This document shows, one piece after another, positions 1 through 43,717 of a stretch of 45,511 bases of DNA. The DNA comes from Escherichia phage vB_Ec-G8. The translations under genes were made by a program, and so were the position numbers. The DNA lies in sequence record PQ433350.1. One strand, 5' to 3'. The notes under the pieces were generated by a model. It had not been told where the DNA came from. It ran no database searches and saw only the letters and a program-made list of their open reading frames with translations. The stretch's first letter is position 1; every line of letters begins with the position of its first letter.

Positions 1-3
1 CAT

Positions 4-25
4 ACCCGCCTAGTGCGGGTTTTTT
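4..25 (+). terminator. Rho-independent terminator
   Basis: ACCCGC-ctagt-GCGGGT hairpin + T5. Confidence 0.6.
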
Positions 26-37
26 ATTTAGTGTAGA

Positions 38-3000
38 ATGGCACAAATGATCAAAACAAACATGAGGCTTTGTGATATGGCTGAAGAGATTAAGATTTAT
101 GGTGCCAAAGGCGGAAGCCAGAAGCAGCATCAACCAGTTGAGCAGGAAGATAACCTTATTTCACTTAACAAGGTTAAGGTGTTGCTTGCTGTAGCTGACG
201 GAGAGGTTGACCATAACTTCTCAATGAAGGATTTATACCTTGCTGACGTTCCCGTGCAAAACCAGGATGGTAGCTACAACTACGAAGGTGTTCGCGCTGA
301 GTTCCGCGCTGGTACGCAGTATCAGGATTATATCGCTGGCCTTGATGGTGCAAACTCAGAGATCCAGGCCTCCAGAGAAATCACGAACGACACCCCGTAC
401 ATCATTGCGGTTAACAATACTCAGCTATCAGCAATTCGTGTAAAGCTATACTGGCCTAGACTGGTTAAGCAAGAAAGCAATGGGGACCTGAACGGAACAA
501 CCTGCGAGTATGCAATTGACCTTTCTGTTAATGGTGGAGCATATCAGGAATACACTCGCGGAGTTGCTAACGGCAAGACAACTACAGGTTACGACCGCAG
601 CATTCGCGTGAACCTTCCTGCAGAGTTTGATAGCGCATTGGTTCGCATCCGTAAGATTACAGCAGATTCAACAAGTAGCACGCTGGTTAACGGAATGCAG
701 ATTACAACCTATCAGGAAGTAATAGACGCTAAATTCCGCTACCCGCTTACAGCACTTGTTTACGTTGAGTTCGGCTCTGACCTGTTCCCTAACGGAATTC
801 CAACAATCTCAATCAAGAAGCGATGGAAGTTAATTCAGGTCCCAACGAACTATGATCCTGAGACTAGAACCTACAGCGGCACGTGGAATGGCCTGTTCAA
901 GATGGCATGGTCAAACAACCCTGCGTGGGTTCTCTATGACTTGGTAACAAACCGCCGCTACGGCCTTGATCAGCGAGAGTTGGGTGTAGAAATTGATAAA
1001 TGGGGACTGTATGAAGCTGCGCAATTCTGCGACCAGATGGTGCCTGATGGTAAGGGTGGAATGGAACCGCGATATCTATGCGACATGGTTGTACAGAACA
1101 AGGTTGAGGCCTACACACTAATTCGTGACATTTGCTCAATCTTTCGTGGACTGACTTTCTATGATGGCGAAAAGATTGGTATCGTTGTTGATAAACCTCG
1201 CAATCCATCTTACATCTTCACTAATGATAACGTTGTAAACGGATTGTTCAGCCGCACTTTTGCCAGCGATAAAAGCCTTTACACTACGGCAAACGTTCAG
1301 TTTGATGATGTGGAGAACAACTATCAGCAGGATGTTGAGCCAGTATTTGAGCTCGAGGCTACTCGCCGATTTGGTTTTAACCCGGTCGACCTAACGGCAA
1401 TTGGATGTACGCGAAGAAGTGAAGCAAACAGACGCGGAAGATGGCTACTGAAAACCAACCTGAGAAGCGAAACTATCAGCTTCACTACCGGGTTGGAAGG
1501 CATGATTCCGATGATTGGTGAGGTGATTGCGGTCAATGACGCGGCATGGTCAAGCAACTATCAGTTAAACCTTTCTGGTCGCATTGAATCAGTTCAGGGA
1601 TTGCAGGTTTTCACCCCGTTTAAAGTTGACGCAGCGCCGGGTGACAGAATTCTTTTGAACAAGCCTGACGGAAGTCCGGAGGCAAGAACTATTGCCAGTG
1701 TTTCGGAAGATGGTAGAACAATCAACCTTAACACTGCCTTTAGCTTCGTCGCTCAACCTGATACTGTTTTTGCAATCGATAAGGATAACCTTGCTCTTCA
1801 GCAGTACGTTGTGACCGGGATTCAAAAGGCAGATACTGACGGCTCGGATTCATTCCAGTATACGATTACCGCCGTAGAGTATGACCCGAACAAGTATGAT
1901 GAGATTGACTACGGCGTTAACATCGTTGACCGCCCAACTTCAATTGTTGAGCCTGACAGATTGTCGCCACCAGAAAACCTGACCGCGTCAAGTTATAGTA
2001 AGGTTGTTCAAGGCTTATCAGTTGAGACGATGGTTATTGGATGGGATAAAGCGCCATACGCTAAAACATACAATGTTCAGTGGAGAAAAGAGAATGGCAA
2101 CTGGATTAACGTACCAAGAACAGCTAGCACAGAAGTTGATATTGAAGGTATTTACGCAGGAATCTATGACGTTAGGGTTCGCAGTGTATCAGATACTGAA
2201 AACGTGTCTGCCTGGTCTGGCATTGTAACTGTATCACTAACTGGCAAGATTGGTAGCCCATCGGCACCTACGGTTATAACGGCATCAACTGATGAAGTAT
2301 TTGGCATCCGTGTTAAATGGGGATTCCCTGAAGGATCTGGTGACACTGCTTACACTGAACTTCAGCAGGTTCCAGATAATGGTGATGGTACTTACAATCC
2401 TGATAACGCAAGTTTGCTGACGTTGCTTCCATACCCAGCCTATGAATACTGGCATACGCCAATTCAGCCAGGTAAGGTGATTTGGTATCGCGCAAGATTG
2501 ATTGACAGAATCGGGAACACATCTGATTGGTCTGATTTCGCCAGAGGCATGAGTACTGATGACGCCAACATTATCAATGATTACATCAAGGTTGATATTG
2601 AGAGCTCAGAGGGATTCAAATATCTCGAGCAGAATGCGATTCAAAAGAATCAGGACATTCAGAATCAAGCTGAGGCAATTATCGAGAACGCATTAGCTAA
2701 TGACACTGATGTGCGTCGTATGACTAAGGAGAACGGCAAACGTAAGGCCGAATATGTTCAGGCAGTGAATCTTATAGCTGATGAAACTCAGGCGCGTGTA
2801 GAAGCTCTTACGCAGCTTAAAGCGCAGATAGATGATGAAGTTGTAGCATCGATTACAGAAGTTCAGACAGCGCTAGCCACCGAGACAGAAGCAAGGACTA
2901 CTGCAGACACGGCTCTATCAGCAAGATTGGGTGATAACGAGGCGGCTCTAAGCCAGAAGTTAGACGCATTCTCCAATGCGACATCTACTGGCGTGCAATA

Positions 3001-4767: not shown

Positions 4768-4787
4768 TTTAGCAATTAGTGCTATTT
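4768..4787 (-). promoter_or_regulatory. Boundary element copy (AATAGCAC-N5-TGCTAAA core), precedes cor
   Basis: Minus-oriented core; Rha TAG stop inside; leader ...CCACATCGAAACGAAACGAA then cor ATG. Confidence 0.6.
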
Positions 4788-5526: not shown

Positions 5527-5545
5527 TTTAGCAAATCGTGCTATT
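5527..5545 (-). promoter_or_regulatory. Boundary element copy, upstream of Rha-like gene
   Basis: Minus-oriented core AATAGCACGATTTGCTAAAG. Confidence 0.55.
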
Positions 5546-5626
5546 CATCGCCAATTTCACCATAAGTCACGGTTACACGTAACCGATGTAACTCGATGTA
5601 TACAATCTCATCCGCGGAAAATGATA

Positions 5627-5895
5627 TACGCGATGTTACGCCAATTTACGCATTTGTTACATTAAAATATCTATATATATCAACCTTTTACTCTTATTAT
5701 TATTATTATATATATTACTGTGTATATCATGTAACTACTTCTATAGAGTGTTCCGGTTATAATTTTAATATCATGTGGATTTATACAGTATTGCGCGGCA
5801 GCTATACCAATGCACCATCAGCAATAAATGATATACACGATATACACACTGGTTACATTGAGCTATAGCTGGGCTGGAACACCATTTTACGTAAC
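5627..5895. repeat. Divergent control region A (homologous to 24666-24990)
   Basis: Colinear shared blocks 5646-5685, 5694-5733 (TTA microsatellite + GTGTATATCATGTA), 5863-5877 (CTATAGCTGGGCTGG); palindrome CGGTTACACGTAACCG at 5569-5584. Confidence 0.7.
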
Positions 5896-6031
5896 GAGTG
5901 CCAATGCCTACACGGAATTACAGAGATTCACACGTAAATTCAAATCAACGATTGGCTAAACCAATTGGACTGGATACTTCGCTGAATATATAGTTAACCC
6001 ATCGAAAGCAAACAACCAGAGAGATAGAGAA

Positions 6032-6226
6032 ATGACCTACTACATTATCAAAGAGAAAAACAACGCACTTTTCGGCGACTGCTACTTTGGCGGCCCTGCG
6101 GGATACACCACAGATAAGAGCGAAGCTGACCGATTCGATACCAAAGAAGAAGCCCGGGATGTGCTGACTGGTTACTTCACTGAAGAAGATTTGAAGTATG
6201 TTAAAGTAGTTAAGGTTAAGGAATAA
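6032..6226 (+). CDS. Hypothetical small acidic protein (64 aa)
   Basis: ORF with purine-rich RBS; first rightward gene after the divergent control region. Confidence 0.5.
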   Translation: MTYYIIKEKNNALFGDCYFGGPAGYTTDKSEADRFDTKEEARDVLTGYFTEEDLKYVKVVKVKE

Positions 6227-12771: not shown

Positions 12772-13245
12772 TTACTCTTTAGCTTTTCGTGCTGCTTCGT
12801 TGGCTGCCTTAATTTTGCGCCATGAGCGACACTCTGGTTTAGTTGCTAGCTCAGCCTCAGTAACAACACGCAGCATATGACGCTTCTTGCAACGTAGAGT
12901 TAGCGGTTTCCCGTTACCGTCGAATTGCAGATCTGGTCGGCAGAATGTAGCGCGAAAACCTTCTCCATTTCGCTTATAGTAGTTGTGCGACAACTGAGCG
13001 CCGCGCGCAGAAATCATCCCACGCTTAAACCATTCTTCTACAGCCTGAGGTGTCACCTTTAACTGCTTTGCGATATTTGCCTTTGTGCCGAAGAAATCAA
13101 GAACAATCTCCAGTCGCGCACGTAAACCCGCCCTTACCTCATCTTTCAAAACGTAGTAACCTGAAGGTCGTTTACGTTGCTTCTTATCTTGTGTGCGGAC
13201 GGTCCCGTTATTGCCGTTAATTGTTCGCTTGTCAACTGCATTCAT
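12772..13245 (-). CDS. Putative HTH DNA-binding protein
   Basis: Basic protein with helix-turn-helix-like segment (NIAKQLKVTPQAVEEWFKRG); start placed at ATG 13245 with GAGGT SD rather than ORF-track start 13281. Confidence 0.55.
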   Translation of the reverse strand: MNAVDKRTINGNNGTVRTQDKKQRKRPSGYYVLKDEVRAGLRARLEIVLDFFGTKANIAKQLKVTPQAVEEWFKRGMISARGAQLSHNYYKRNGEGFRATFCRPDLQFDGNGKPLTLRCKKRHMLRVVTEAELATKPECRSWRKIKAANEAARKAKE

Positions 13246-13346
13246 TTCATTACCTCGATAGCATTTTTTGTTAAAAGTCATTCTGATTTGATAGTATTAT
13301 TGTACTCAATTAAACGCTACAAGACAATTTTTATAGGAATTTAGAT

Positions 13347-15342: not shown

Positions 15343-15762
15343 ATGCAAATTACAGACAAAGAAGATTACATTGAGTTTTACCCAGGCCCGGTTAAGTCAT
15401 GCCCGAAAGAGGATGACGAACAAATCTTTTGCTCTGATTGGGTTAAGTATAACTACCCGGAGATGGTATTTTTCCACTGCGTAAATGAGGGCAAGAAAAC
15501 CATTGGTCAAGCAAGAAAAGATCAGGCGAAGGGGTTGCTTAAGGGCGTATCAGACTGCTTATTCCTGATACCTGAATCGCTGCGAGGGAAATATCCTTTC
15601 GGGGCTATAGAGCTAAAGAGGGCTGGTAAAACTCAAGCAAGTCCAGTCAGCGAAGAACAGAAAGCATTTCTGAAAAGTGTAATGGAATCAGGCGGTTTCT
15701 CGGCAGTCGCCTACGGACGTGAGGGTTTTCTTGCAGCATTCAAAGAAATGATTTCAAAATAG
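15343..15762 (+). CDS. VRR-NUC domain nuclease
   Basis: 139 aa; PD-(D/E)xK-type motif (SDCLFLIP...GAIELKR); start overlaps the helicase stop; TAG stop inside a boundary element. Confidence 0.7.
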   Translation: MQITDKEDYIEFYPGPVKSCPKEDDEQIFCSDWVKYNYPEMVFFHCVNEGKKTIGQARKDQAKGLLKGVSDCLFLIPESLRGKYPFGAIELKRAGKTQASPVSEEQKAFLKSVMESGGFSAVAYGREGFLAAFKEMISK

Positions 15763-15777
15763 CACGAATTGCTAAAG
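15759..15777 (+). promoter_or_regulatory. Boundary element copy, precedes 15839 ORF
   Basis: ATAGCACGAATTGCTAAAG with upstream TAG stop inside. Confidence 0.6.
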
Positions 15778-20902: not shown

Positions 20903-22486
20903 TCACCCCAGCAGTCGCGGATTAATGTAAACTTTATCACCAATCAGGCACGTATAGTTTTTCTCATCAAGCATTGGCAGTAAGTGATCTTTAATCTTCG
21001 TCATCACTCCAGCCTGAGCCTCGAACGGCTTAACCTTGCGAGCAGCTTCATACAATGAGCGAATACCAACTACGCCCTTACCGTTTTTGCCTTGCTTGAT
21101 CAGAATATCAATCAGCTTATTCATCTCGGCATTGTCGCCAGCGTGACCAGCTGCGTTAGCAGATGACAAATAAGTCTTGCTCAGTTCCTGAAACATAATA
21201 ACAGCTTCTTGCATCGTATCTAGCTCGATCTCTCTAGACTTACGCGGACTCCCGCCATTTGGGTTAAACCAGTTACGCACGGTATGAAGAACCGCCGCAA
21301 TTCGGATGGCCTGCTTGTCGAATTTACCCAGGGCGCCGCGCAACATTGTGTGTGAATACTTACCGCCGTCAGCAAGGTGAGGTTCCATTTCCTGACGCGC
21401 GCGGTTGAGATACTTCATTGCTGAGTTGCTCACTGTCAACTTAACATCCTGCTCATTCATTATTTCGTGAACAAGTCGGAAGTAATCAGCCTTCAATGCG
21501 CCATCAATTGGCTCGTAAGTTGAATCTCCATTTTCATCAACGAATACACGTTCGCCAAGGAATGACTTCTCGCGGACCAAAAGGAAGCGCTCAGATACAC
21601 CGATACCACGCGCACCAGCGTTCATAATAGCGTTGATTGTCTCATCCTGCGCAATTACGGAGATACAGCCCATGGCAACGAAGCTCATGTTGTTTTCTGC
21701 ATTAGCACGCGCGATAGATACGTTACCAGCATCCCATGCTTTAAGCACAAGCTCGCTGTTCGTTTTCTTTGAGCCGTCACCATAGGTCATACCAAGCAGT
21801 GAGTTTACGCTAGTCGCCTCATCAGAGATCACTGCGAAATTACCCTGGCGATTGTTTATTCGCGCAAGACCCTCAGGTGTTGTATCTGATACCGGGAATA
21901 CGATATCACATAGTTTCTCCAGTTTTTCCTCCAGCTCTTCTTTTTCCTCAAAAAGAGAGGCCATCTCTGACGGAGATTTTTCCTGCTTCATCTCTTTTGA
22001 TAACGCAGATAGTTTGGCCATAATCTTTTTGCGCTCACGCTTTCTAACTTCATTCAGCCGCTCAGTCTCAGCGATCATTGGAGAAATCGAAAGTGAGTTG
22101 ATTGCTGATTTACCAGTCGAAGGAGGCTGGCTAGTCACGACGTAAAGAGATGTTGGCTGCTGAGTCCCGTGATACTCGACAGTGAATCGGCCCAGCATAG
22201 CAGCGGAAATACACCCAAGGAAGTGCATGTATGCTGAAGACTCTGGGAACTGAACAGAGCGGGCAATATTTGCTGACAGCTTACCAACAACATCAATGTC
22301 ATTACCTAGTGAGATTACAGGGTATTTATCATTAGCCGCATCAATCTCGACCGGAGCCTTCCAGAATGATTGAGACTGGCGATAGCCATTGGCATTAATG
22401 GCGACTCGCAGTGGCGGGAGGTTGTCAGCAGCAGCAATTGCCATAACCTGTTCAACAGATAGTTTATCTTCGTTGAAATCAAACAT
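20903..22486 (-). CDS. P-loop NTPase (Walker A/B), replication-associated ATPase-like
   Basis: 527 aa; Walker A (QPPSTGKS), Walker B (FAVISDEA); GGAGAG RBS; upstream element variant with TGaTATAAT extended -10. Confidence 0.7.
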   Translation of the reverse strand: MFDFNEDKLSVEQVMAIAAADNLPPLRVAINANGYRQSQSFWKAPVEIDAANDKYPVISLGNDIDVVGKLSANIARSVQFPESSAYMHFLGCISAAMLGRFTVEYHGTQQPTSLYVVTSQPPSTGKSAINSLSISPMIAETERLNEVRKRERKKIMAKLSALSKEMKQEKSPSEMASLFEEKEELEEKLEKLCDIVFPVSDTTPEGLARINNRQGNFAVISDEATSVNSLLGMTYGDGSKKTNSELVLKAWDAGNVSIARANAENNMSFVAMGCISVIAQDETINAIMNAGARGIGVSERFLLVREKSFLGERVFVDENGDSTYEPIDGALKADYFRLVHEIMNEQDVKLTVSNSAMKYLNRARQEMEPHLADGGKYSHTMLRGALGKFDKQAIRIAAVLHTVRNWFNPNGGSPRKSREIELDTMQEAVIMFQELSKTYLSSANAAGHAGDNAEMNKLIDILIKQGKNGKGVVGIRSLYEAARKVKPFEAQAGVMTKIKDHLLPMLDEKNYTCLIGDKVYINPRLLG

Positions 22487-24058: not shown

Positions 24059-24255
24059 TTCTCTTCACCTTTTAAATTATGACGCTTGATCAGAACTTCA
24101 ACCCATTCTTGCGCGTCTTCCTCTCTCATGAAGAAGCTTAACTTTGGGTACTTGTGAAAACCTTTAAGTTCAACAATCCAATGACCACCTTCGTAACTAT
24201 AACTAACTTTCTTCTCTGTCATTTCGTTACCTTTTGAGTTTTTTATTATCGACAT
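24055..24255 (-). CDS. Hypothetical protein (start uncertain: 24255 or 24222)
   Basis: First leftward ORF after the divergent control region; ORF-track N-terminus (to 24357) covers hairpin-rich probable leader. Confidence 0.35.
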   Translation of the reverse strand: MSIIKNSKGNEMTEKKVSYSYEGGHWIVELKGFHKYPKLSFFMREEDAQEWVEVLIKRHNLKGEEK

Positions 24256-24459
24256 CTCTTCAACGTACTCGCTACAACTCGGGATTTTACTCCCGGCCCG
24301 GCATCCTAACAAAAGGACCCGCTCGGCGCTTTGGTGGGTGAGGTAACGCTTCCTCACATTGCGCGGTAGTATTTACCCTTTTTAGTCTCTTTCGAGAGTG
24401 ACTCAGAGTCTGCTACCGTGTCGATGAGATTAAGTATACGCATAGTTATCCACACTGTC

Positions 24460-24478
24460 TTTAGCAAAAAGTGCTATT
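24460..24478 (-). promoter_or_regulatory. Boundary element copy at the leftward edge of control region B
   Basis: Minus-strand AATAGCACTTTTTGCTAAAG. Confidence 0.55.
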
Positions 24479-24492
24479 CGTTAGATTTATGT

Positions 24493-24577
24493 ATTGTTGC
24501 AGATATTGCAATGATTCACATGATTATTGCACATATAGCAATATTGTTTCAGATGCAATGATGTTTTTGATTGTTGC
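24493..24577. repeat. Iteron-like cluster of TTGCA-core repeats
   Basis: ATTGTTGC at both ends (24494, 24570), TGCAATGAT twice (24507, 24554), further ATTGCA/AGCAAT units at about 10-11 bp spacing. Confidence 0.5.
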
Positions 24578-24665
24578 GAAAAGTGAAATGAAGTGGTGAG
24601 TGAGTGAATGAAAGATGGATGGGCTACCATACAAGTTGATTTTGATTCTGGCTGAGCCATTTTTG

Positions 24666-24990
24666 CGTATACGCGTTATAAAAGTTATGCCTTGTAGATG
24701 ATGCCACCCTCCGTAGGAATCGTGTACGCCTATAACGCTGAATTACGCAATGGTTACACTATAATATCTATACATAACAACCATTTAGTAGTATTATTAT
24801 TATTATATATATTACTATGTATATCATGTATATCCCCCTTGCGGGGAGGGTCGATAGTTTTTCTATGAAAATGACATTTTCTATATATATAAGGATAGGT
24901 ATATACCCTCCGCGTTTTCCGCGGAAATTAATCTACAGGCAAATTACATGCACTATAGCTGGGCTGAGGTGGCAAAAAACGTAACCAGGG
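24666..24990. repeat. Divergent control region B (homologous to 5627-5895)
   Basis: Shared blocks 24743-24782, 24794-24830, 24953-24966; extra hairpins (CCCC-ttgc-GGGG; CCGCG-ttttc-CGCGG). Confidence 0.7.
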
Positions 24991-25082
24991 CCAATATAAA
25001 CACGAAATAACACTTGATAACGTGTATATGTGTGTTATTATGGATTCATCTTAACGAAGGGCAACCAATCAGGAGTAATGAA

Positions 25083-25601
25083 ATGTCAGAACATAAAGAA
25101 GTAGTAAGTCTCGGTGAAGTGGTTCGTTACATGGCTACCAAGGCTTTGAATGACGATACTAAATCATTTGCTGTCCCACTGCGCATGATTGCACAACAGG
25201 TGTACGGACTTGATAAGACAGAGATGACGAGAGTGTACGAAGAAGACCTGGCGCCCGGAGGCAAGTATCACCTCAAGAAGCTGAAGGCGTCATACGTTTC
25301 AAACACAGTAAGCCGGATGCCAGAAGTCAAGGCTGCTAACGTCCGGTCAATGTTCTCACTGAAGGACATGGAGTTTAATGAGAAGGAGGTTCGATGTGCG
25401 GTAATCTCACTCGTACCAGGCGCTATCAATACCGGGTCGCGCAATAAAGCAGAAGCAGAGAAGGAGGCAGCTATCATTGAAAAATTCAAATCTCGATTGC
25501 TCAAGCTGTCACCAAGCGTTGCTGGACTTGAAGGTGAAGAACTTAAGGGCGCGGTGACAATGATTAACGCTTATCAGGAAATGATTAAGGAGACTAAGTA
25601 G
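25083..25601 (+). CDS. Hypothetical early protein (172 aa)
   Basis: ATG 25083 with AGGAG SD 7 nt upstream; first rightward gene after control region B. Confidence 0.55.
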   Translation: MSEHKEVVSLGEVVRYMATKALNDDTKSFAVPLRMIAQQVYGLDKTEMTRVYEEDLAPGGKYHLKKLKASYVSNTVSRMPEVKAANVRSMFSLKDMEFNEKEVRCAVISLVPGAINTGSRNKAEAEKEAAIIEKFKSRLLKLSPSVAGLEGEELKGAVTMINAYQEMIKETK

Positions 25602-26201: not shown

Positions 26202-26219
26202 ATAGCACGAATTGCTAAA
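26202..26219 (+). promoter_or_regulatory. Boundary element copy, precedes 26287 ORF
   Basis: TGA-ATAGCACGAATTGCTAAA; TGaTATAGT extended -10 downstream. Confidence 0.6.
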
Positions 26220-28845: not shown

Positions 28846-28923
28846 GCTCTGCTAGCTCAACGGGAAAGAAGCAACGACCTTCTAAGTCGTAGGTTACTGG
28901 TTCGAATCCAGTGCGGAGCGCCA
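28846..28923 (+). tRNA. tRNA-Arg (anticodon UCU)
   Basis: Cloverleaf folded by hand: 7-bp acceptor stem (GCTCTGC/GCGGAGC with one G-U), anticodon stem ACGAC/GTCGT, loop CTTCTAA (anticodon TCT at 28881-28883), T-arm ACTGG-TTCGAAT-CCAGT, discriminator G and encoded CCA. Confidence 0.85.
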
Positions 28924-29317: not shown

Positions 29318-29824
29318 ATGAGCAAAGCAGCATTAAAGATGGGTGAGGGAAATTTCAAGGCGCTATACAACAAGAAGTATGGCGACATTGCTATGGTGGC
29401 AATCAACCGCAAGTACACGCCTGAGGAAGTTTTCGATTTCGCCGTTAGATACTTCTCCTGGGCTGAGAGCGAGGCAATTAAGGCTATTGAGACGGCTGCT
29501 TTCCAGGGTGTGGTTAGCGAGAGCCTCGTACACAAGCCTAGAGTATTCACCTTAACTGGGCTGGCGCTCTTTATGGGTGTCAATATCAATAGATTCGCTC
29601 GCTGGCGTACTGAGGCTGGATACTCTGATGTGATGGAATTCATTGATAACGTTATTTACGAGCAGAAGTACCAGCTTGGTGTCGCAGGCATCATCAACTC
29701 TACCATCGTTGGTAAAGAGCTAGGAATTGATAAGCCGCAGGAGATTAAGATTAGCAACAACTCAACAGCTAACGATGTTGACAGTATGAAGGAAGCTCTG
29801 GAATCTGTAATTAGCAAGCTATAA
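29318..29824 (+). CDS. Terminase small subunit
   Basis: 168 aa ORF immediately upstream of the large terminase; AAGGAGGA RBS; assignment by position and size. Confidence 0.7.
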   Translation: MSKAALKMGEGNFKALYNKKYGDIAMVAINRKYTPEEVFDFAVRYFSWAESEAIKAIETAAFQGVVSESLVHKPRVFTLTGLALFMGVNINRFARWRTEAGYSDVMEFIDNVIYEQKYQLGVAGIINSTIVGKELGIDKPQEIKISNNSTANDVDSMKEALESVISKL

Positions 29825-29841: not shown

Positions 29842-31407
29842 ATGTCTTTAGTATGGGAAGAAATGACCATTCAGGAAAAGATGGCTGTTAAGGCGATATC
29901 AGAACACAGCTTCGAGGGTTTCCTTCGTTGCTGGTTCCAGATTACACAAGGCGAACGATACATCCCTAACTGGCATCACAAGTACTTGTGCAGAATCATT
30001 GACGAGATTATTGCAGGCGAAAGAAAGGACACCATTATCAACATAGCACCAGGCAGCGGAAAGACGGAAATTGCCTCAATCCACTTCCCGGCCTATTCGA
30101 TGGTTAAGCTTAGGAAGGTGCGCAACCTTAACATCTCTTTTGCTGACTCCCTGGTTAAGCGTAACTCGAAGCGAGTGCGTGACCTTATCAAGTCTCAAGA
30201 ATTTCAGTCACTCTGGCCATGCAAGTTTGGCACTTGCAAAGACGATGAGCTTCAGGTTCTTGATGAGAGTGGCAAGGTTAGATTTGAGTCAATATCAAAG
30301 GCGGCTGGAGGCCAGATTACTGGCGCTCGCGGTGGGTACATAACCGAAACATACAGCGGAGCCGTTCTTTTGGATGACTTTGACAAACCCGCAGATATGT
30401 TATCAGCAGTGTACCGCTCGAATAATCACGTAATGCTTAAAAATACGATTCGCTCACGTCGAGCCAGTTCTGTAAAAGGCAAAGCGACACCAATCATTTC
30501 GATACAGCAGCGGCTTCACGTCAATGACTCAACCTGGTTCATGATGGAGGGGGGTATGGGTATCGACTTTGACTTGGTTAAGATACCGGCTCTGGTTACT
30601 GAGGATTACATCGACTCGCTCCCTGACTGGATTAAAGATCAGTTTGCTGAGGACGTACTAAGCAGCGAATATATTGAGCGAGATGGCGTAAAGTACTACA
30701 GCTACTTTCCTAAAAAGGAATCCGTAAACGACCTGGTGGCAATGTGGGATAGCGACCCCTACACTTTCCTCAGCCAGTATCAGCAGGAGCCAGTAGCGCT
30801 GGGTGGCAACCTAATTAACGTGGACTGGTTCCAGCGAATCAGTGATACGTTCAGACCTCCAGCTAAGTACGACTATCGATTCATAACTTGCGATACCGCA
30901 ATGACCACTAAAAGTTACAGCGACTTCTCTGTTCTTCAGTTGTGGGGCTATAAAGATGCTAAGATTTACCTTATTGATCAGCGCAGGGGTAAATGGGAGG
31001 CCCCAGAGTTGGAGGCTGAACTGCTGGACTTCGAGAAGAAATCAAGGGCAACCAGTCAGTCAGATGGTATCCTCAGAAAGATTATTATCGAGAAGAAAGC
31101 GTCTGGTATCGGCCTGATTCAATCAGCTGGCAGGGTTATGCGAACACCGATAGAGCCATACGTACCGGATAATGACAAGCTAACCAGGGTGATGAGTGCA
31201 CTACCACAGATTAAGGCTGGTAACGTAGTTCTTCCAGAGTCATCGCCGTGGCTAAACGGATTGCTCACTGAGGTTGCGGCTTTTACGGCAGATGACTCGC
31301 ATAAGCACGACGACCAAATTGACTGTCTAACAATGGCGGTAAACCTTGTGCTTAACATCGCGGATGATCCTAAGGCGAGACTGATGCGCATAGCGGGAAT
31401 GAAATAG
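29842..31407 (+). CDS. Terminase large subunit
   Basis: 521 aa; N-terminal ATPase with Walker A (APGSGKT), C-terminal nuclease-like acidic residues; TAG stop inside an element. Confidence 0.9.
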   Translation: MSLVWEEMTIQEKMAVKAISEHSFEGFLRCWFQITQGERYIPNWHHKYLCRIIDEIIAGERKDTIINIAPGSGKTEIASIHFPAYSMVKLRKVRNLNISFADSLVKRNSKRVRDLIKSQEFQSLWPCKFGTCKDDELQVLDESGKVRFESISKAAGGQITGARGGYITETYSGAVLLDDFDKPADMLSAVYRSNNHVMLKNTIRSRRASSVKGKATPIISIQQRLHVNDSTWFMMEGGMGIDFDLVKIPALVTEDYIDSLPDWIKDQFAEDVLSSEYIERDGVKYYSYFPKKESVNDLVAMWDSDPYTFLSQYQQEPVALGGNLINVDWFQRISDTFRPPAKYDYRFITCDTAMTTKSYSDFSVLQLWGYKDAKIYLIDQRRGKWEAPELEAELLDFEKKSRATSQSDGILRKIIIEKKASGIGLIQSAGRVMRTPIEPYVPDNDKLTRVMSALPQIKAGNVVLPESSPWLNGLLTEVAAFTADDSHKHDDQIDCLTMAVNLVLNIADDPKARLMRIAGMK

Positions 31408-36615: not shown

Positions 36616-36983
36616 ACTACAACGAAATCGAATCAATTACTCGCGCTGGCATTAACTTCTTTAGTGATGCCAATGGCTTTTACGAGATGAGCACGGGTGC
36701 TGGATATGTTGAAATCGTTAACGGCGTTGAAGTAGATGTTCCTTCGCAGACATTCCAGCTAAAAGGCTTGGTGCGAGAAATCAAGACGCGCGATATCGAT
36801 GGTGAGTTTATCCAGTTTGGCGATAAGCGCGGAATCTTCACAGCACAGGCGGAAATTAAGCAGGGTTATCAGATTAAAGTTGATGGCGAGACTTTCGTTG
36901 TTGTTGACCCTCGGCCTGTAAAACCAACCGGCACAGTTGTTGGTTATAGACCGATTCTTCGTAGGGTGGCTACTTATGGCTAG
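36612..36983 (+). CDS. Head-tail joining protein (putative)
   Basis: ATGA-coupled to the upstream gene. Confidence 0.5.
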   Translation: MNYNEIESITRAGINFFSDANGFYEMSTGAGYVEIVNGVEVDVPSQTFQLKGLVREIKTRDIDGEFIQFGDKRGIFTAQAEIKQGYQIKVDGETFVVVDPRPVKPTGTVVGYRPILRRVATYG

Positions 36984-39544: not shown

Positions 39545-42523
39545 ATGGCAACAAATGAATTAGCCGGAATCACACTAGCCGTAGACGTCTCGCAGGTAGA
39601 CAGGGGAACGCAATCCCTACAAAAGTTCAGACAGGCCAACCAACAGGCTGCATCTGGGATTAGTGAGTTCGTCAATGCTGAGCAGGTTGCTAAAAACCAG
39701 GCTAGAGATACCGCTCGCGCACTTGCTGAGCAACAGGCATCTTTAGCTAAATTGCAAACAGCTATTGACCCAACTGCGGCAAAATTCCGCAAGCTGCAGG
39801 AGGCTGCTGTAGGTCTTGATAAGGCGTTCGCTGCTGGAGTGGTTCCCGATGAGGAGTTTTTCCGCTTAGGCGAGGCACTTGAAACGCAGAATGCAAAACT
39901 TGCTCGTTCACGTGCGGCGCTAACTGAAGAGGGTAGAGCAGCTGCTCAGGCTGCAAAAGATAAAGCAAAGGCAAAGGCTGAAGCTGACAGGTTCATTGCT
40001 TCACTTGAGCGCCAGGCTCAAGCGGCAACATTGACGCGCGAGGAGTACTTAAAGTTACAGGCTGCTCAGCTTGGTGTAAGTTCCCAGGCAGCACCCATCA
40101 TTGACAGAATCGCCGATGCATCACAGAAGGCAAACACCCAGCTAATTGCTCAGAGCAAGGCTTTTCAGCGCTCTGGCTTAAGCGCAGGTCAATACAAGAA
40201 TGCCATATCTCAACTACCAGCGCAGATTACTGATATTGGCACGTCGCTTGCTGGAGGCATTCCGATTTGGCTTATTGCAATTCAGCAGGGTGGGCAGATC
40301 AAGGATGCATTTGGCGGTATTGGTAACACCTTTAGATTCGCGCTTGAAGCCTTAAACCCATTTAATGTAGCTGTTGGTGTTTTGGGTGGGGCGCTTGTAG
40401 CTCTTGGTGTTGGTGCAGCTCAGGCTGAGAGTGAATTCAGGGCGTTAAACTCCGCGATTGTGTTCTCCAACAACTCTACAATCGCATCAATCTCGCAGGT
40501 TAGAGAGTTGGTTAGCTCTGTTTCTGATGCAACAGGTGCTACCAGAGGACTTGTGACTAGCATCGCAACAAGCCTTATTGAGCAAGGGAACCTTACGCTG
40601 ACGCAGATTGACAAGATTACTAAATCGACCGCAAGATGGGCGCAGTTGACAGGTAAGGATGCGAAGGAGATTACTGGTTACTATAACCAGATTGCAAGCG
40701 ACCCAATCCAGGGTTTAGTTGATTTGGATAAGCGCTTTAACTTCCTCACACAGGGGCAGTTGACGACAATCGAAAACCTGAGAAAGACAAAGGGAGAAGT
40801 TGAGGCCGTTACTGCTGCGATTGATATTTTCAGCAAGTCTCAGGAAGCCAACCTTAACGACATAGCTGCGCAGTTAACTCCGCTTGAGCTAGCCTGGAAT
40901 GATTTCAGAAAGTACATCTCTGATATCTGGGATGCAATTAGTCGTAGAACGGTCGGGGCGCTGAACCTATTTGTTGACGTAATCGCCGGAACGATTGAAC
41001 AGATCAGGGTATTCATTAACCAGGGTGATGTTCTGATTGGTGAATTCGTAATTAGCGCAACTCAGGCATTGCAGAACATTCCTGGTCTTGATGGCGTTGG
41101 TGATGATGTTATCAAGGGGCAGCAGAAGATTATCGATGCCGCCAAGAAGCAAAACCTTGAGCTAGAGAAGTCAATCAAGGAGCGAGATGCCAGAATCAGA
41201 GAGGGAGAGCTTGGTTACGTTACTCGCAGAGAAAATCAGAATACCAATGAGCAGTCAGGTACTGATGAGGAATTTGCAAAAAGGAAGAAGGCGCTTCAGG
41301 ATGAGCTTGATGCGATCAAGAAGAACAGGAAAGAAGAAAATAGTAGGGTTAAGGAGCAAAGAGATTTAACAATTGGTTATGAATCTGGCGTTCTGGCGCT
41401 TCAGGCTCAACTCAAGGTGCTTCAGGAAAACAGGGATATTGGCGCAGTAATAAGCAATGAGCGCAAGCAGTATCTTCAGGAGGAGGCCAAATTCAGGATT
41501 CTTGAGCAGAGACAACTTGATGGCTCAATTACCAAAGAGCAAGCAAGACTTCTCATTGAAAAGGATAAAGTTCTTGAGTTAGCCAGACAGAAGGCTGAGC
41601 TAGGTGATCAGATTGTTTTGCAGGAGCGAGCTAATAAGTTAGCTGAAGATAACCGCAAGAAGATTCTTCAGATTAACAATGAGGCAAGTAACATTGATTT
41701 GGGTGCTGGTTTATCATCTCGCGAGCAGCAGAGAGCCAAAGAGATTCAGGCTCTTCAATCCAATCAGGTTAATGCTGGTGGTTCTGTTGATGATGTTGAT
41801 TTTCAGCAATTGCTGGAAGCAAGAAAGGAATACTACAAGCAGGAGGATAATCTTAGGTCAGACTGGCAATCCGGTGTAACATCCACTCTCGCCGACTTGA
41901 CAGAGAAGTACACTGACTACAACCAGATTGCTAAGGACTTAACTGTTGCGGCATTCGATGGAATTACAGACCAGATTACAAACCTTGTAACCACTGGTGA
42001 GACCAATTTCAGGGAGTTCACCGCAAGCATCCTCAAAATGATTGCGAAGATTGCAACTCAGTTGCTTTTGGTTAAAGCTATAGAATCAACACTAACTAGT
42101 TTTGGTGGTGGTGGTGGTAACGCGTTTGGCTCGCTTGCATCTGCTATAGGTTTTGCTGGTGGCGGTTACACTGGTGATGGTGGGAAGTATCAGCCAGCAG
42201 GTACGGTTCATCGAGGTGAGTTTGTATTCACAAAAGAAGCGACAAGCCGAATTGGTGTCAAAAACCTTTATGCGCTAATGAAGGGTTACGCAAACGGCGG
42301 CGCGGTTGGTGGTCCTTCAGGATATGCAAATGGCGGCTTGGTTTCTGGTGGTTCAGATGTTAATGTTAGCGGGATTACTGTTAACGTCAATGGTGGCGTT
42401 GGTAGCGACCCAGAGCATGCCAAAGCATTGCAGAGCGGCGTCAAGGCTATCGTAGCGGAAGAAATTGCTCAGTCTTTCCAGCAGGGTGGGCGTGCCTATG
42501 CTTACCTTCGCGGATTCAACTAA
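39545..42523 (+). CDS. Tail tape measure protein
   Basis: 992 aa; coiled-coil Ala/Gln/Lys/Glu-rich; Gly-rich C-terminal region; GGAGG RBS. Confidence 0.9.
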   Translation: MATNELAGITLAVDVSQVDRGTQSLQKFRQANQQAASGISEFVNAEQVAKNQARDTARALAEQQASLAKLQTAIDPTAAKFRKLQEAAVGLDKAFAAGVVPDEEFFRLGEALETQNAKLARSRAALTEEGRAAAQAAKDKAKAKAEADRFIASLERQAQAATLTREEYLKLQAAQLGVSSQAAPIIDRIADASQKANTQLIAQSKAFQRSGLSAGQYKNAISQLPAQITDIGTSLAGGIPIWLIAIQQGGQIKDAFGGIGNTFRFALEALNPFNVAVGVLGGALVALGVGAAQAESEFRALNSAIVFSNNSTIASISQVRELVSSVSDATGATRGLVTSIATSLIEQGNLTLTQIDKITKSTARWAQLTGKDAKEITGYYNQIASDPIQGLVDLDKRFNFLTQGQLTTIENLRKTKGEVEAVTAAIDIFSKSQEANLNDIAAQLTPLELAWNDFRKYISDIWDAISRRTVGALNLFVDVIAGTIEQIRVFINQGDVLIGEFVISATQALQNIPGLDGVGDDVIKGQQKIIDAAKKQNLELEKSIKERDARIREGELGYVTRRENQNTNEQSGTDEEFAKRKKALQDELDAIKKNRKEENSRVKEQRDLTIGYESGVLALQAQLKVLQENRDIGAVISNERKQYLQEEAKFRILEQRQLDGSITKEQARLLIEKDKVLELARQKAELGDQIVLQERANKLAEDNRKKILQINNEASNIDLGAGLSSREQQRAKEIQALQSNQVNAGGSVDDVDFQQLLEARKEYYKQEDNLRSDWQSGVTSTLADLTEKYTDYNQIAKDLTVAAFDGITDQITNLVTTGETNFREFTASILKMIAKIATQLLLVKAIESTLTSFGGGGGNAFGSLASAIGFAGGGYTGDGGKYQPAGTVHRGEFVFTKEATSRIGVKNLYALMKGYANGGAVGGPSGYANGGLVSGGSDVNVSGITVNVNGGVGSDPEHAKALQSGVKAIVAEEIAQSFQQGGRAYAYLRGFN

Positions 42524-43698: not shown

Positions 43699-43717
43699 AT
43701 AGCACTTTTTGCTAAAG
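43699..43717 (+). promoter_or_regulatory. Boundary element copy inside tail operon, precedes moron 43772
   Basis: TAA-ATAGCACTTTTTGCTAAAG, hairpin, TATAGT, CTCACACAAACGAGAGG. Confidence 0.65.

Follow-up and report, generated by a model that had tools for sequence, protein, structure and literature searches.

At the packaging-initiation (pac) sites of SPP1 (pacL-pacC-pacR) and P1 and at cosB of lambda, the cut, imprecise or central, falls between several short repeats bound by the small terminase, near an IHF site or an intrinsic bend, and promoters overlap the signal. These sites are found at or in the terminase genes or, in P1, are made of Dam-methylated GATC hexamers. P22 and Sf6, whose small terminases belong to the Pfam family GP3_package, package by the headful mechanism and start each packaging series with imprecise cuts. 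In P22, gene 3 contains pac as one asymmetric site of 22 bp, and the pac of the T1-like phage TLS was assigned by a 6-bp resemblance to it and placed at the record start by restriction mapping (PMC11447400). For the T1 family as a whole, a pac sequence has yet to be defined. Headful packaging is documented for T1, TLS, and MSK (PMC11447400, PMC8421802), and pac of the T1-like phages has been placed in the untranslated region considered here without being pinpointed (PMC7718038). The present analysis concerns that region, termed the hub, in Escherichia phage vB_Ec-G8 (PQ433350.1), the whole 45,511-nucleotide stretch of which is referred to as the window. By megablast, the window is a T1-like coliphage of the Drexlerviridae, subfamily Braunvirinae, with Veterinaerplatzvirus T145P1 (88-97%) and Rtp (87%) as its closest relatives. 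Its hub belongs to a known class of region, the genome end of T1-like phages with its pac site, the internal anatomy of which had not previously been worked out. We consider it rather probable, with some reserve, that the hub is a pac region set between divergent early promoters and serves as the genome-end hub of a T1-like headful-packaging phage; the pac site would lie between a leftward promoter, P_L, and a rightward one, P_R.

Genome ends and a probable packaging signal in the hub

The gene-free span runs from 24223 to 25082 (860 bp), bounded by the ATG of the first leftward gene at 24222 (minus strand) and that of the first rightward gene at 25083. An earlier note, made from the sequence alone, had described a non-coding hub at 24360-25080 lying between divergent gene arrays; its non-coding status and its setting were both borne out and every element listed in it is present in the sequence, but the true span is wider. 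A gap of about 700 bp is kept in 13 annotated or aligned relatives and in T1, and the corresponding junction of Rtp (1015 bp) is the longest gap of that record. In T1, Rtp, and TLS, the hub likewise lies upstream of terS and between outward-facing arrays of small early genes. The location also agrees with the left-end pac region of T1, Rtp, TLS, SU57, and MSK, about 4-6 kb upstream of terS with the same gap of about 700 bp, and the order of elements is that of T1 and its relatives, namely a leftward box, palindromes, a G-rich or purine tract, an AT-rich core, and a rightward promoter. The window departs from the T1 group in an extra leader of 200 nt and, rightward of about 24644, in having an allele of its own.

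It is at this hub that the conventional ends of the genome records meet. Position 1 of Rtp corresponds to window position 24537, nine other records begin or terminate between 24468 and 24665, and the records of Rao1, CEB_EC3a, and ZL19 have their ends at 24618, 24662, and 24665. The published ends of MSK and SU57 map inside the hub as well: the forward-strand terminus given by PhageTerm for MSK at 36,862 (PMC8421802) aligns to 24627, the 3' edge of the purine tract, and the SU57 end, chosen from PhageTerm and a step in read depth (PMC7718038), yields a record end and start that align to 24644/24645. The SU57 small terminase (TerS) is 100% identical to that of the window, and the T1 record annotates a terminal repeat at 1..2800 (2.8 kb). 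Homology to SU57, T145P1, and BEK6 runs at 95-97% as far as about 24644 and falls away sharply just rightward of it, with mosaic breakpoints at 24643-24645, a pattern that recombinogenic DNA ends at this point would give. The window encodes a headful-type terminase: TerS (29318-29824) matches GP3_package, the P22 gp3 family, and PHROG 606, and the neighbouring 521-amino-acid open reading frame (ORF) at 29842-31407 is taken as the large subunit, TerL, from the annotation of relatives.

The elements of the hub and of its paralogue are as follows, by window position.

24223-24432, minus strand: untranslated leader of the leftward transcript, about 200 nt, with no intact ORF in three frames
24433-24477, minus strand: leftward promoter P_L, comprising box, 19-bp spacer, and -10 hexamer
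24446-24454, plus strand: perfect DnaA-box 9-mer TTATCCACA within the variable P_L spacer, judged a chance match
24496-24589, no strand: four 17-bp palindromes of the form [A/G]TTGC-N7-GCAAT, recognised from cluster statistics and conservation
24578-24625, plus strand: purine-rich tract GTGAGTGAGTGAATGAAAGATGGATGG, 80% purine, with a conserved GGAATGA core
24618-24665, plus strand: inferred pac cleavage zone, from the ends of relatives mapped onto the window
24667-24835, no strand: conserved AT-rich module of about 170 bp, the lowest GC content in the window, with a copy at 5571-5740
24836-24943, no strand: variable spacer, with two alleles among the aligned relatives
24944-25013, plus strand: block TTACAT..CTATAGCTGGGCTG..ACGTAAC upstream of P_R, paralogous to 5853-5923 (70% identity over 70 bp)
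25014-25082, plus strand: rightward early promoter P_R and its 5' untranslated region, with conserved -35, -10, and spacing
5545-6032, no strand: second, paralogous hub, with the AT-rich module and without palindromes or purine tract

In the alignment with relatives, the most widely conserved hub DNA is 24456-24580, which holds the P_L box and the palindromes, followed by the GGAATGA core, TACGCGT at 24670, and the phased TACGC-type repeats at 24725-24759; beyond these lie an almost invariant AT-rich tract with (TAT)4-6 and then a tandem 9-mer. The cluster of TTGCA-core repeats reported in the earlier note is real and far from chance, but the units form inverted and not direct repeats, so that the description as iterons does not hold. 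They make up four 17-bp inverted repeats at 24496-24512, 24526-24542, 24543-24559, and 24573-24589. With at most one mismatch allowed, [A/G]TTGC-N7-GCAAT returns 26 strand-hits in the window, where 8.5 would be expected, and seven of these are packed into 94 bp inside the hub. Across Braunvirinae, Rogunavirinae, and Nouzillyvirus, the half-sites hardly vary, and changes fall in the N7 spacers and the linkers. The purine-rich repeat run of the same note is also real, 24578-24623 being 80% purine and tied second among the most strand-biased 46-mers of the window. Two palindromes of the same type in T1, GTTGCATGGTGTGCAAC and GTTGCTTAGAATGCAAT (GTTGC-N7-GCAA[C/T]), abut record position 1 and are followed by a G-rich tract, and the start of the TLS record lies within an arrangement like that of the window, made up of a promoter box, a pair of palindromes unlike those of the window in sequence, and a GATT/GTGAGTGAGT tract; in both phages the G- or GTGAGTGAGT-type tract that follows the palindromes adjoins the record start. 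The palindromes are candidate recognition sites for the small terminase or, alternatively, operators.

Outside the hub, the window holds only two perfect copies of [A/G]TTGC-N7-GCAAT, at 29387-29403 (ATTGCTATGGTGGCAAT) and 42041-42057; the former lies 70 bp inside the small-terminase gene, where P22-type phages keep pac, and may be there by chance. A search for the palindrome array beyond the Drexlerviridae returned 36 viral-contig hits, all the non-Drexlerviridae ones being coding repeats of tail-fibre-like genes. No match to the hub was found in E. coli genomes or plasmids, whether as a satellite or as a plasmid carrying it.

On the packaging reading, the four-palindrome array, alone or together with the purine tract beside it, would be what TerS recognises, and the terminase would cut the concatemer imprecisely some 40-80 bp to the right of the palindromes (about 24618-24665). 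Headfuls would then be packaged rightward, toward terS (29318), with the first virion chromosome starting with the AT-rich module and P_R, and the DNA ends made at the hub would explain how different right-hand alleles came to be joined to the same left-hand sequence at about 24644. Such a signal would differ from that of P22 in being an array of four palindromes in an intergenic hub, and from those of SPP1, P1, and lambda in its palindromic repeats, its lack of GATC, and its distance from terS.

Several points weigh against assigning pac to this array. Pac lies in or at terS in P22, Sf6, and SPP1, the usual though not obligatory place, and the candidate here lies 4.3 kb upstream of that gene. 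Recognition of palindromes is not known for small terminases of the P22 family. A repressor or an activator, too, would be well served by dimeric palindromes placed 80-155 bp upstream of P_L, and the protein partner of each motif is a candidate drawn from sequence. The mapped ends come by transfer from relatives (MSK, SU57, T1) and not from this phage; the T1 and Rtp records start 90-130 bp further left than the MSK and SU57 ends, and the ends of some records are mere copies of the T1 or Rtp ones. PhageTerm gave no clear termini for KanT1, and SU57 shows no sub-molar pac fragment, its authors calling the pac site not identified (PMC7718038).

Outward-facing promoters and candidate host activators

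The hub carries two outward-facing promoters. P_R combines a -35 hexamer TTGATA (25014-25019), a 16-bp spacer, and a -10 hexamer TATTAT (25036-25041) preceded by TG, matching the consensus at 10 of 12 positions, and is followed by a 5' untranslated region with CATCTTAACGA and then AGGAG, after which comes the start codon (ATG, 25083) of a gene for a DUF7174 protein (25083-25601). Two alleles of this promoter occur among 14 phages, and in both the two hexamers and the distance between them are conserved, as TTGATA or TTGAC[T/C] with TAnnAT. By its hexamers, spacing, conservation, and place upstream of a gene, P_R qualifies as a putative sigma-70 promoter and, being near consensus, should be usable at once by the unmodified host polymerase. 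P_L is of another type, with a 20-bp upstream box ATAGCACTTTTTGCTAAAGA (24477->24458), a 19-bp spacer, and a -10 hexamer TATACT (24438->24433), followed by the conserved CATCGA start region; its box is invariant in 14 phages. The earlier note had called the hub an origin or early switch, of which the early-promoter part stands, with a conserved sigma-70 P_R directed rightward and a phage-family P_L leftward; the argument made there for an origin does not.

The P_L box is one of many. The motif ATAGCAC-N3-TTGCTAAA occurs in 22 copies in the window against 0.57 expected, all oriented with local transcription (for example at 4768-4785 and 24460-24477 on the minus strand, and at 15759-15776, 26202-26219, and 43699-43716 on the plus strand). 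The distance from box to TAnnnT is exactly 18 bp in 17 of the 22 and 19 bp in another two. The copies share one layout, in which the box is followed by a spacer, TAnnnT, a CATCGAAACGA-like start region, a ribosome-binding site, and ATG; because this aligned layout is fixed, the 22 repeats are read as promoters in which the box takes the place of a -35 element. P_L also carries the 21-nt intergenic repeat aaATAGCACnnnTTGnTAAAA described in TLS, to which no role was assigned (PMC11447400); it is the same repeat, and the TLS authors read it neither as a promoter nor as a marbox.

The boxes bear a close resemblance to the marboxes bound by the Mar/Sox/Rob regulators of E. coli, for which the consensus AYnGCACnnWnnRYYAAAY (PMC3709825) and a second form, GCAHWWWWTGYYAAA (PMC6900184), have been published. 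The first, with at most one mismatch, gives 19 sites in the window against 0.97 expected, and the TTT-type boxes, that of P_L included, fit the second perfectly. At class II promoters, as described in the micF and MarA literature, a forward box centred near -41.5 overlaps a weak -35 and is paired with a good -10 (PMC9638938, PMC6900184). The phage boxes are likewise forward and centred at about -41, with 18-19 bp to TAnnnT in 19 of the 22, and P_L thus resembles the class II Mar/Sox/Rob promoters of E. coli in consensus, in forward orientation, and in overlap of the -35 position. A tblastn search of the window with a single query sequence found no MarA-like gene, and a host factor is therefore the candidate activator; in the literature searched, no paper linked the Drexlerviridae with Rob, MarA, or SoxS. 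The motif evidence suggests that most T1-like phage transcription could depend on host Rob, MarA, or SoxS.

A leader of about 200 nt (24223-24432, minus strand) separates P_L from the first leftward gene in the window, T145P1, and the ACG-M12 group alone; in the other relatives, the first leftward gene follows directly after the promoter. The leader RNA folds at -59 kcal/mol (z = -2.2) and contains a GAAA-tetraloop hairpin with a compensatory change between the window and ACG-M12 (TCTC/GAGA vs TCCC/GGGA). This structured leader could be a cis-regulatory element or a small RNA. A scan of the window at Rfam gathering thresholds returned tRNA only, and 24150-25150, scanned permissively, yielded nothing above E = 0.1. 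A tRNA-Arg gene (anticodon TCT) lies at 28846-28923 in the rightward early region, as reported for SU57.

The AT-rich module and the second hub

To the right of the inferred cleavage zone lies a module, 24667-24835, built of TACGCGT (24670), a series of TACGC, AACGC, TACGC, and TACAC at 24725, 24734, 24744, and 24755 (about 10 bp apart, with 9-11 bp phasing), an IHF-like site at 24775-24787 with one mismatch in the window and a perfect match in most relatives, (TAT)5 at 24792-24806, and a tandem pair of ATGTATATC at 24817-24834. A copy of the module stands at 5571-5740 in a second hub, 5545-6032, which is a gap with divergent promoters, separating the cor/lipoprotein side from the recombination genes, and which likewise holds TACGC repeats, an IHF consensus, (TAT)n, and TGTATATC. 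A 96-bp core of the module is 85% identical to 5638-5733, and the homologous stretches 24754-24833 and 5651-5730 are the two most AT-rich 80-mers of the window (16% GC, tied lowest). The second hub is conserved in 133 phage records, its T1 equivalent lying at 29851-30377.

The joint consensus of 21 module sequences reads TACGCGT..TGTA..TACGC-N6-ACGC-N5-TACGC-N5-TTACA..ATATC..TATATA.CAACC.TTTA..(TAT)n..TGTATAT..TGTA and contains at a fixed place a match to the IHF consensus, TATCAACCTTTTA, which is perfect in the second hub. The palindromes and the purine tract are found in the main hub only and are missing from the paralogue at 5.6 kb, by which the region divides into a pac-specific part (24496-24665) and the shared module (24667-24835); the module, being duplicated, is not specific to pac. 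It is best regarded as a separate element, either a candidate origin or unwinding element or a candidate architectural element bent by IHF.

The tandem 9-mer at 24817-24834 changes in both repeats together among the phages (TGTATATC twice, TGTATACY twice, or TGTAGATAA twice), for which gene conversion and a pair of binding sites are both possibilities. Concerted change across the two hubs was looked for and not seen: the single copy in the second hub stays TGTATATC, whereas the main hub varies to TGTAGATAA or TGTATACY. With no concerted evolution between the hubs, the 9-mer offers no pointer to a phage-specific binder. In the variable spacer beyond the module, the window allele has GC palindromes at 24833-24847 and 24909-24925. 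Both of the GC hairpins of the earlier note are therefore present, but only 24909-24925 is significant as a DNA hairpin (z = -4.05; the other, z = -0.4). Intrinsic terminators at these hairpins were ruled out, as a terminator scan found none and neither is followed by a run of T. The sequence TCCGCGGAAA at 24918-24927 recurs in the second hub at 5611-5620.

Alternative readings: operators, a reading frame, or an origin

The four palindromes might instead be operators of a dimeric helix-turn-helix regulator of the phage, such as the Cro-like protein encoded at 12772-13281, which would switch P_L and/or P_R from early to late, with pac elsewhere in the hub or represented by the purine tract alone. 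Inverted repeats of 17 bp with 5-bp half-sites are typical operator geometry, they stand upstream of P_L at the distance given above, the phage does encode a protein with a P22_Cro-like motif, and in T1 the palindromes sit between two leftward promoter boxes. Yet they are too distant upstream to occlude P_L, neither the second divergent-promoter hub nor any of the other 21 promoters has them, and they are located where the mapped ends of relatives fall; we hold the operator explanation to be unlikely, though not negligible. Far less credible is the notion that the TTGCA cluster encodes a small Cys-rich protein. No conserved ORF was found between 24222 and 25083, and the only sizeable internal one, of 57 amino acids (minus strand, 24660->24487, with a CxxCx6CxxC pattern), owes its Cys codons (TGC) to the TGCA repeats. 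The frame is open in the window with TGC codons at the repeats, but frame or start is lost in 8 of 13 relatives, the frame is interrupted in at least five (IME542, Msk, T145P1, IME253, XGG1), the indels across it among relatives are not multiples of 3, it has no ribosome-binding site, and it has no Pfam or PHROG match. It was rejected as a gene because neither frame nor start is conserved.

Whether the hub also holds a replication origin is a distinct question, and an origin in the AT-rich module would be compatible with pac next door. The origins of lambda, SaPI, and SPP1 (oriL/oriR) combine iterons with an AT-rich tract. The module resembles them in its short phased repeats beside such a tract and in its two copies per genome, as with oriL/oriR; it differs in that its repeats are only 5-6 bp long, that it lies neither inside nor directly beside a replication gene, and that no initiator was recognised. 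In this proposal, the module at 24667-24835 and its twin at 5571-5740 would form the origin, with a phage initiator or helicase acting on the phased TACGC/TTACRY repeats, IHF bending the DNA, and the (TAT)n tract melting. Four TACGC-type repeats about 10 bp apart do abut the most AT-rich 80 bp of the genome (24754-24833), a candidate unwinding tract. An iteron-type origin has an array of three or more direct repeats that bind an initiator; the 5-mers at 24725-24759 and those of the twin module may be such an array, the TTGCA units being inverted repeats. In both of its copies the module is almost unchanged across three subfamilies, T1 has TTACGCC repeats beside the AT-rich cores of both hubs, the IHF consensus keeps its position, and the varying length of (TAT)n would be better tolerated by an unwinding element than by a promoter spacer. 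A gene for a DnaB-like DUF3987 helicase (20903-22486) lies 1.7 kb away in the leftward operon, with a primase, the Cro-like protein, and an SF2 helicase also encoded elsewhere in the window, and no origin is known for the T1-like phages (PMC7718038, PMC11447400). On the other side, the module is without similarity to plasmid or E. coli sequences, no initiator is recognisable near it (the neighbouring DUF7174 protein gives weak winged-helix-like fold matches only), and the setting of both copies between divergent promoters fits a transcriptional or architectural role equally well. Origin function of the module is accordingly a possible but doubtful proposition. A DnaA-dependent origin of the oriC type, using TTATCCACA, is as improbable as the Cys-rich protein and was rejected for want of a conserved DnaA box and of a GATC cluster. 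There is one perfect box, exactly at the position given in the earlier note, a one-mismatch box at 24246, and an AT-rich tract 300 bp away; but the perfect 9-mer is the only one in 45.5 kb, about chance level (19 sites with at most one mismatch against 11.8 expected), it lies in the P_L spacer, and it is absent from 12 of 13 relatives, T145P1 having 8 of its 9 bases. GATC does not occur between 24092 and 26391 (2.3 kb) and is depleted across the window (67 against 162 expected from shuffles), unlike TLS and T1, which are described as rich in methylated GATC. The TTGCA repeats of the origin argument are palindromes and adjoin the packaging ends that were mapped from relatives. The GC skew, proposed as a check, follows transcription direction and does not discriminate. 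The features once taken as signs of an origin are better explained by a packaging signal, in the case of the palindromes and purine tract, and by chance in that of the DnaA box.

Returning to the hub as a pac region between divergent early promoters, the elements may be combined in a wider reading, in which P_L and about 20 further promoters are class II marbox promoters driven by host Rob, MarA, or SoxS, the palindromes and purine tract are pac, and the AT-rich module, present twice per genome, is the origin. This combination is held to be possible but doubtful, a grading that refers to the marbox part together with at least one of the pac and origin parts. The hub would then be the place at which a T1-like phage depends on DNA-binding proteins of its host and at which both packaging and replication begin.

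T1-like phages often contaminate laboratories and fermenters and are also candidates for phage therapy, and both their pac sequence and their origin are undefined. A concrete pac candidate, namely four palindromes and a purine tract with a cut 40-80 bp to the right, could allow genome records to open at the true end, would account for the mosaic breakpoints, and would permit the design of packaging-competent plasmids or engineered transducing particles, while the two copies of the AT-rich module help to narrow the hunt for the origin down to a pair of 170-bp sites. If the boxes are truly marboxes, a stress regulator of the host would be required for most transcription in this phage family, and antibiotic-stress physiology would be linked to phage susceptibility.

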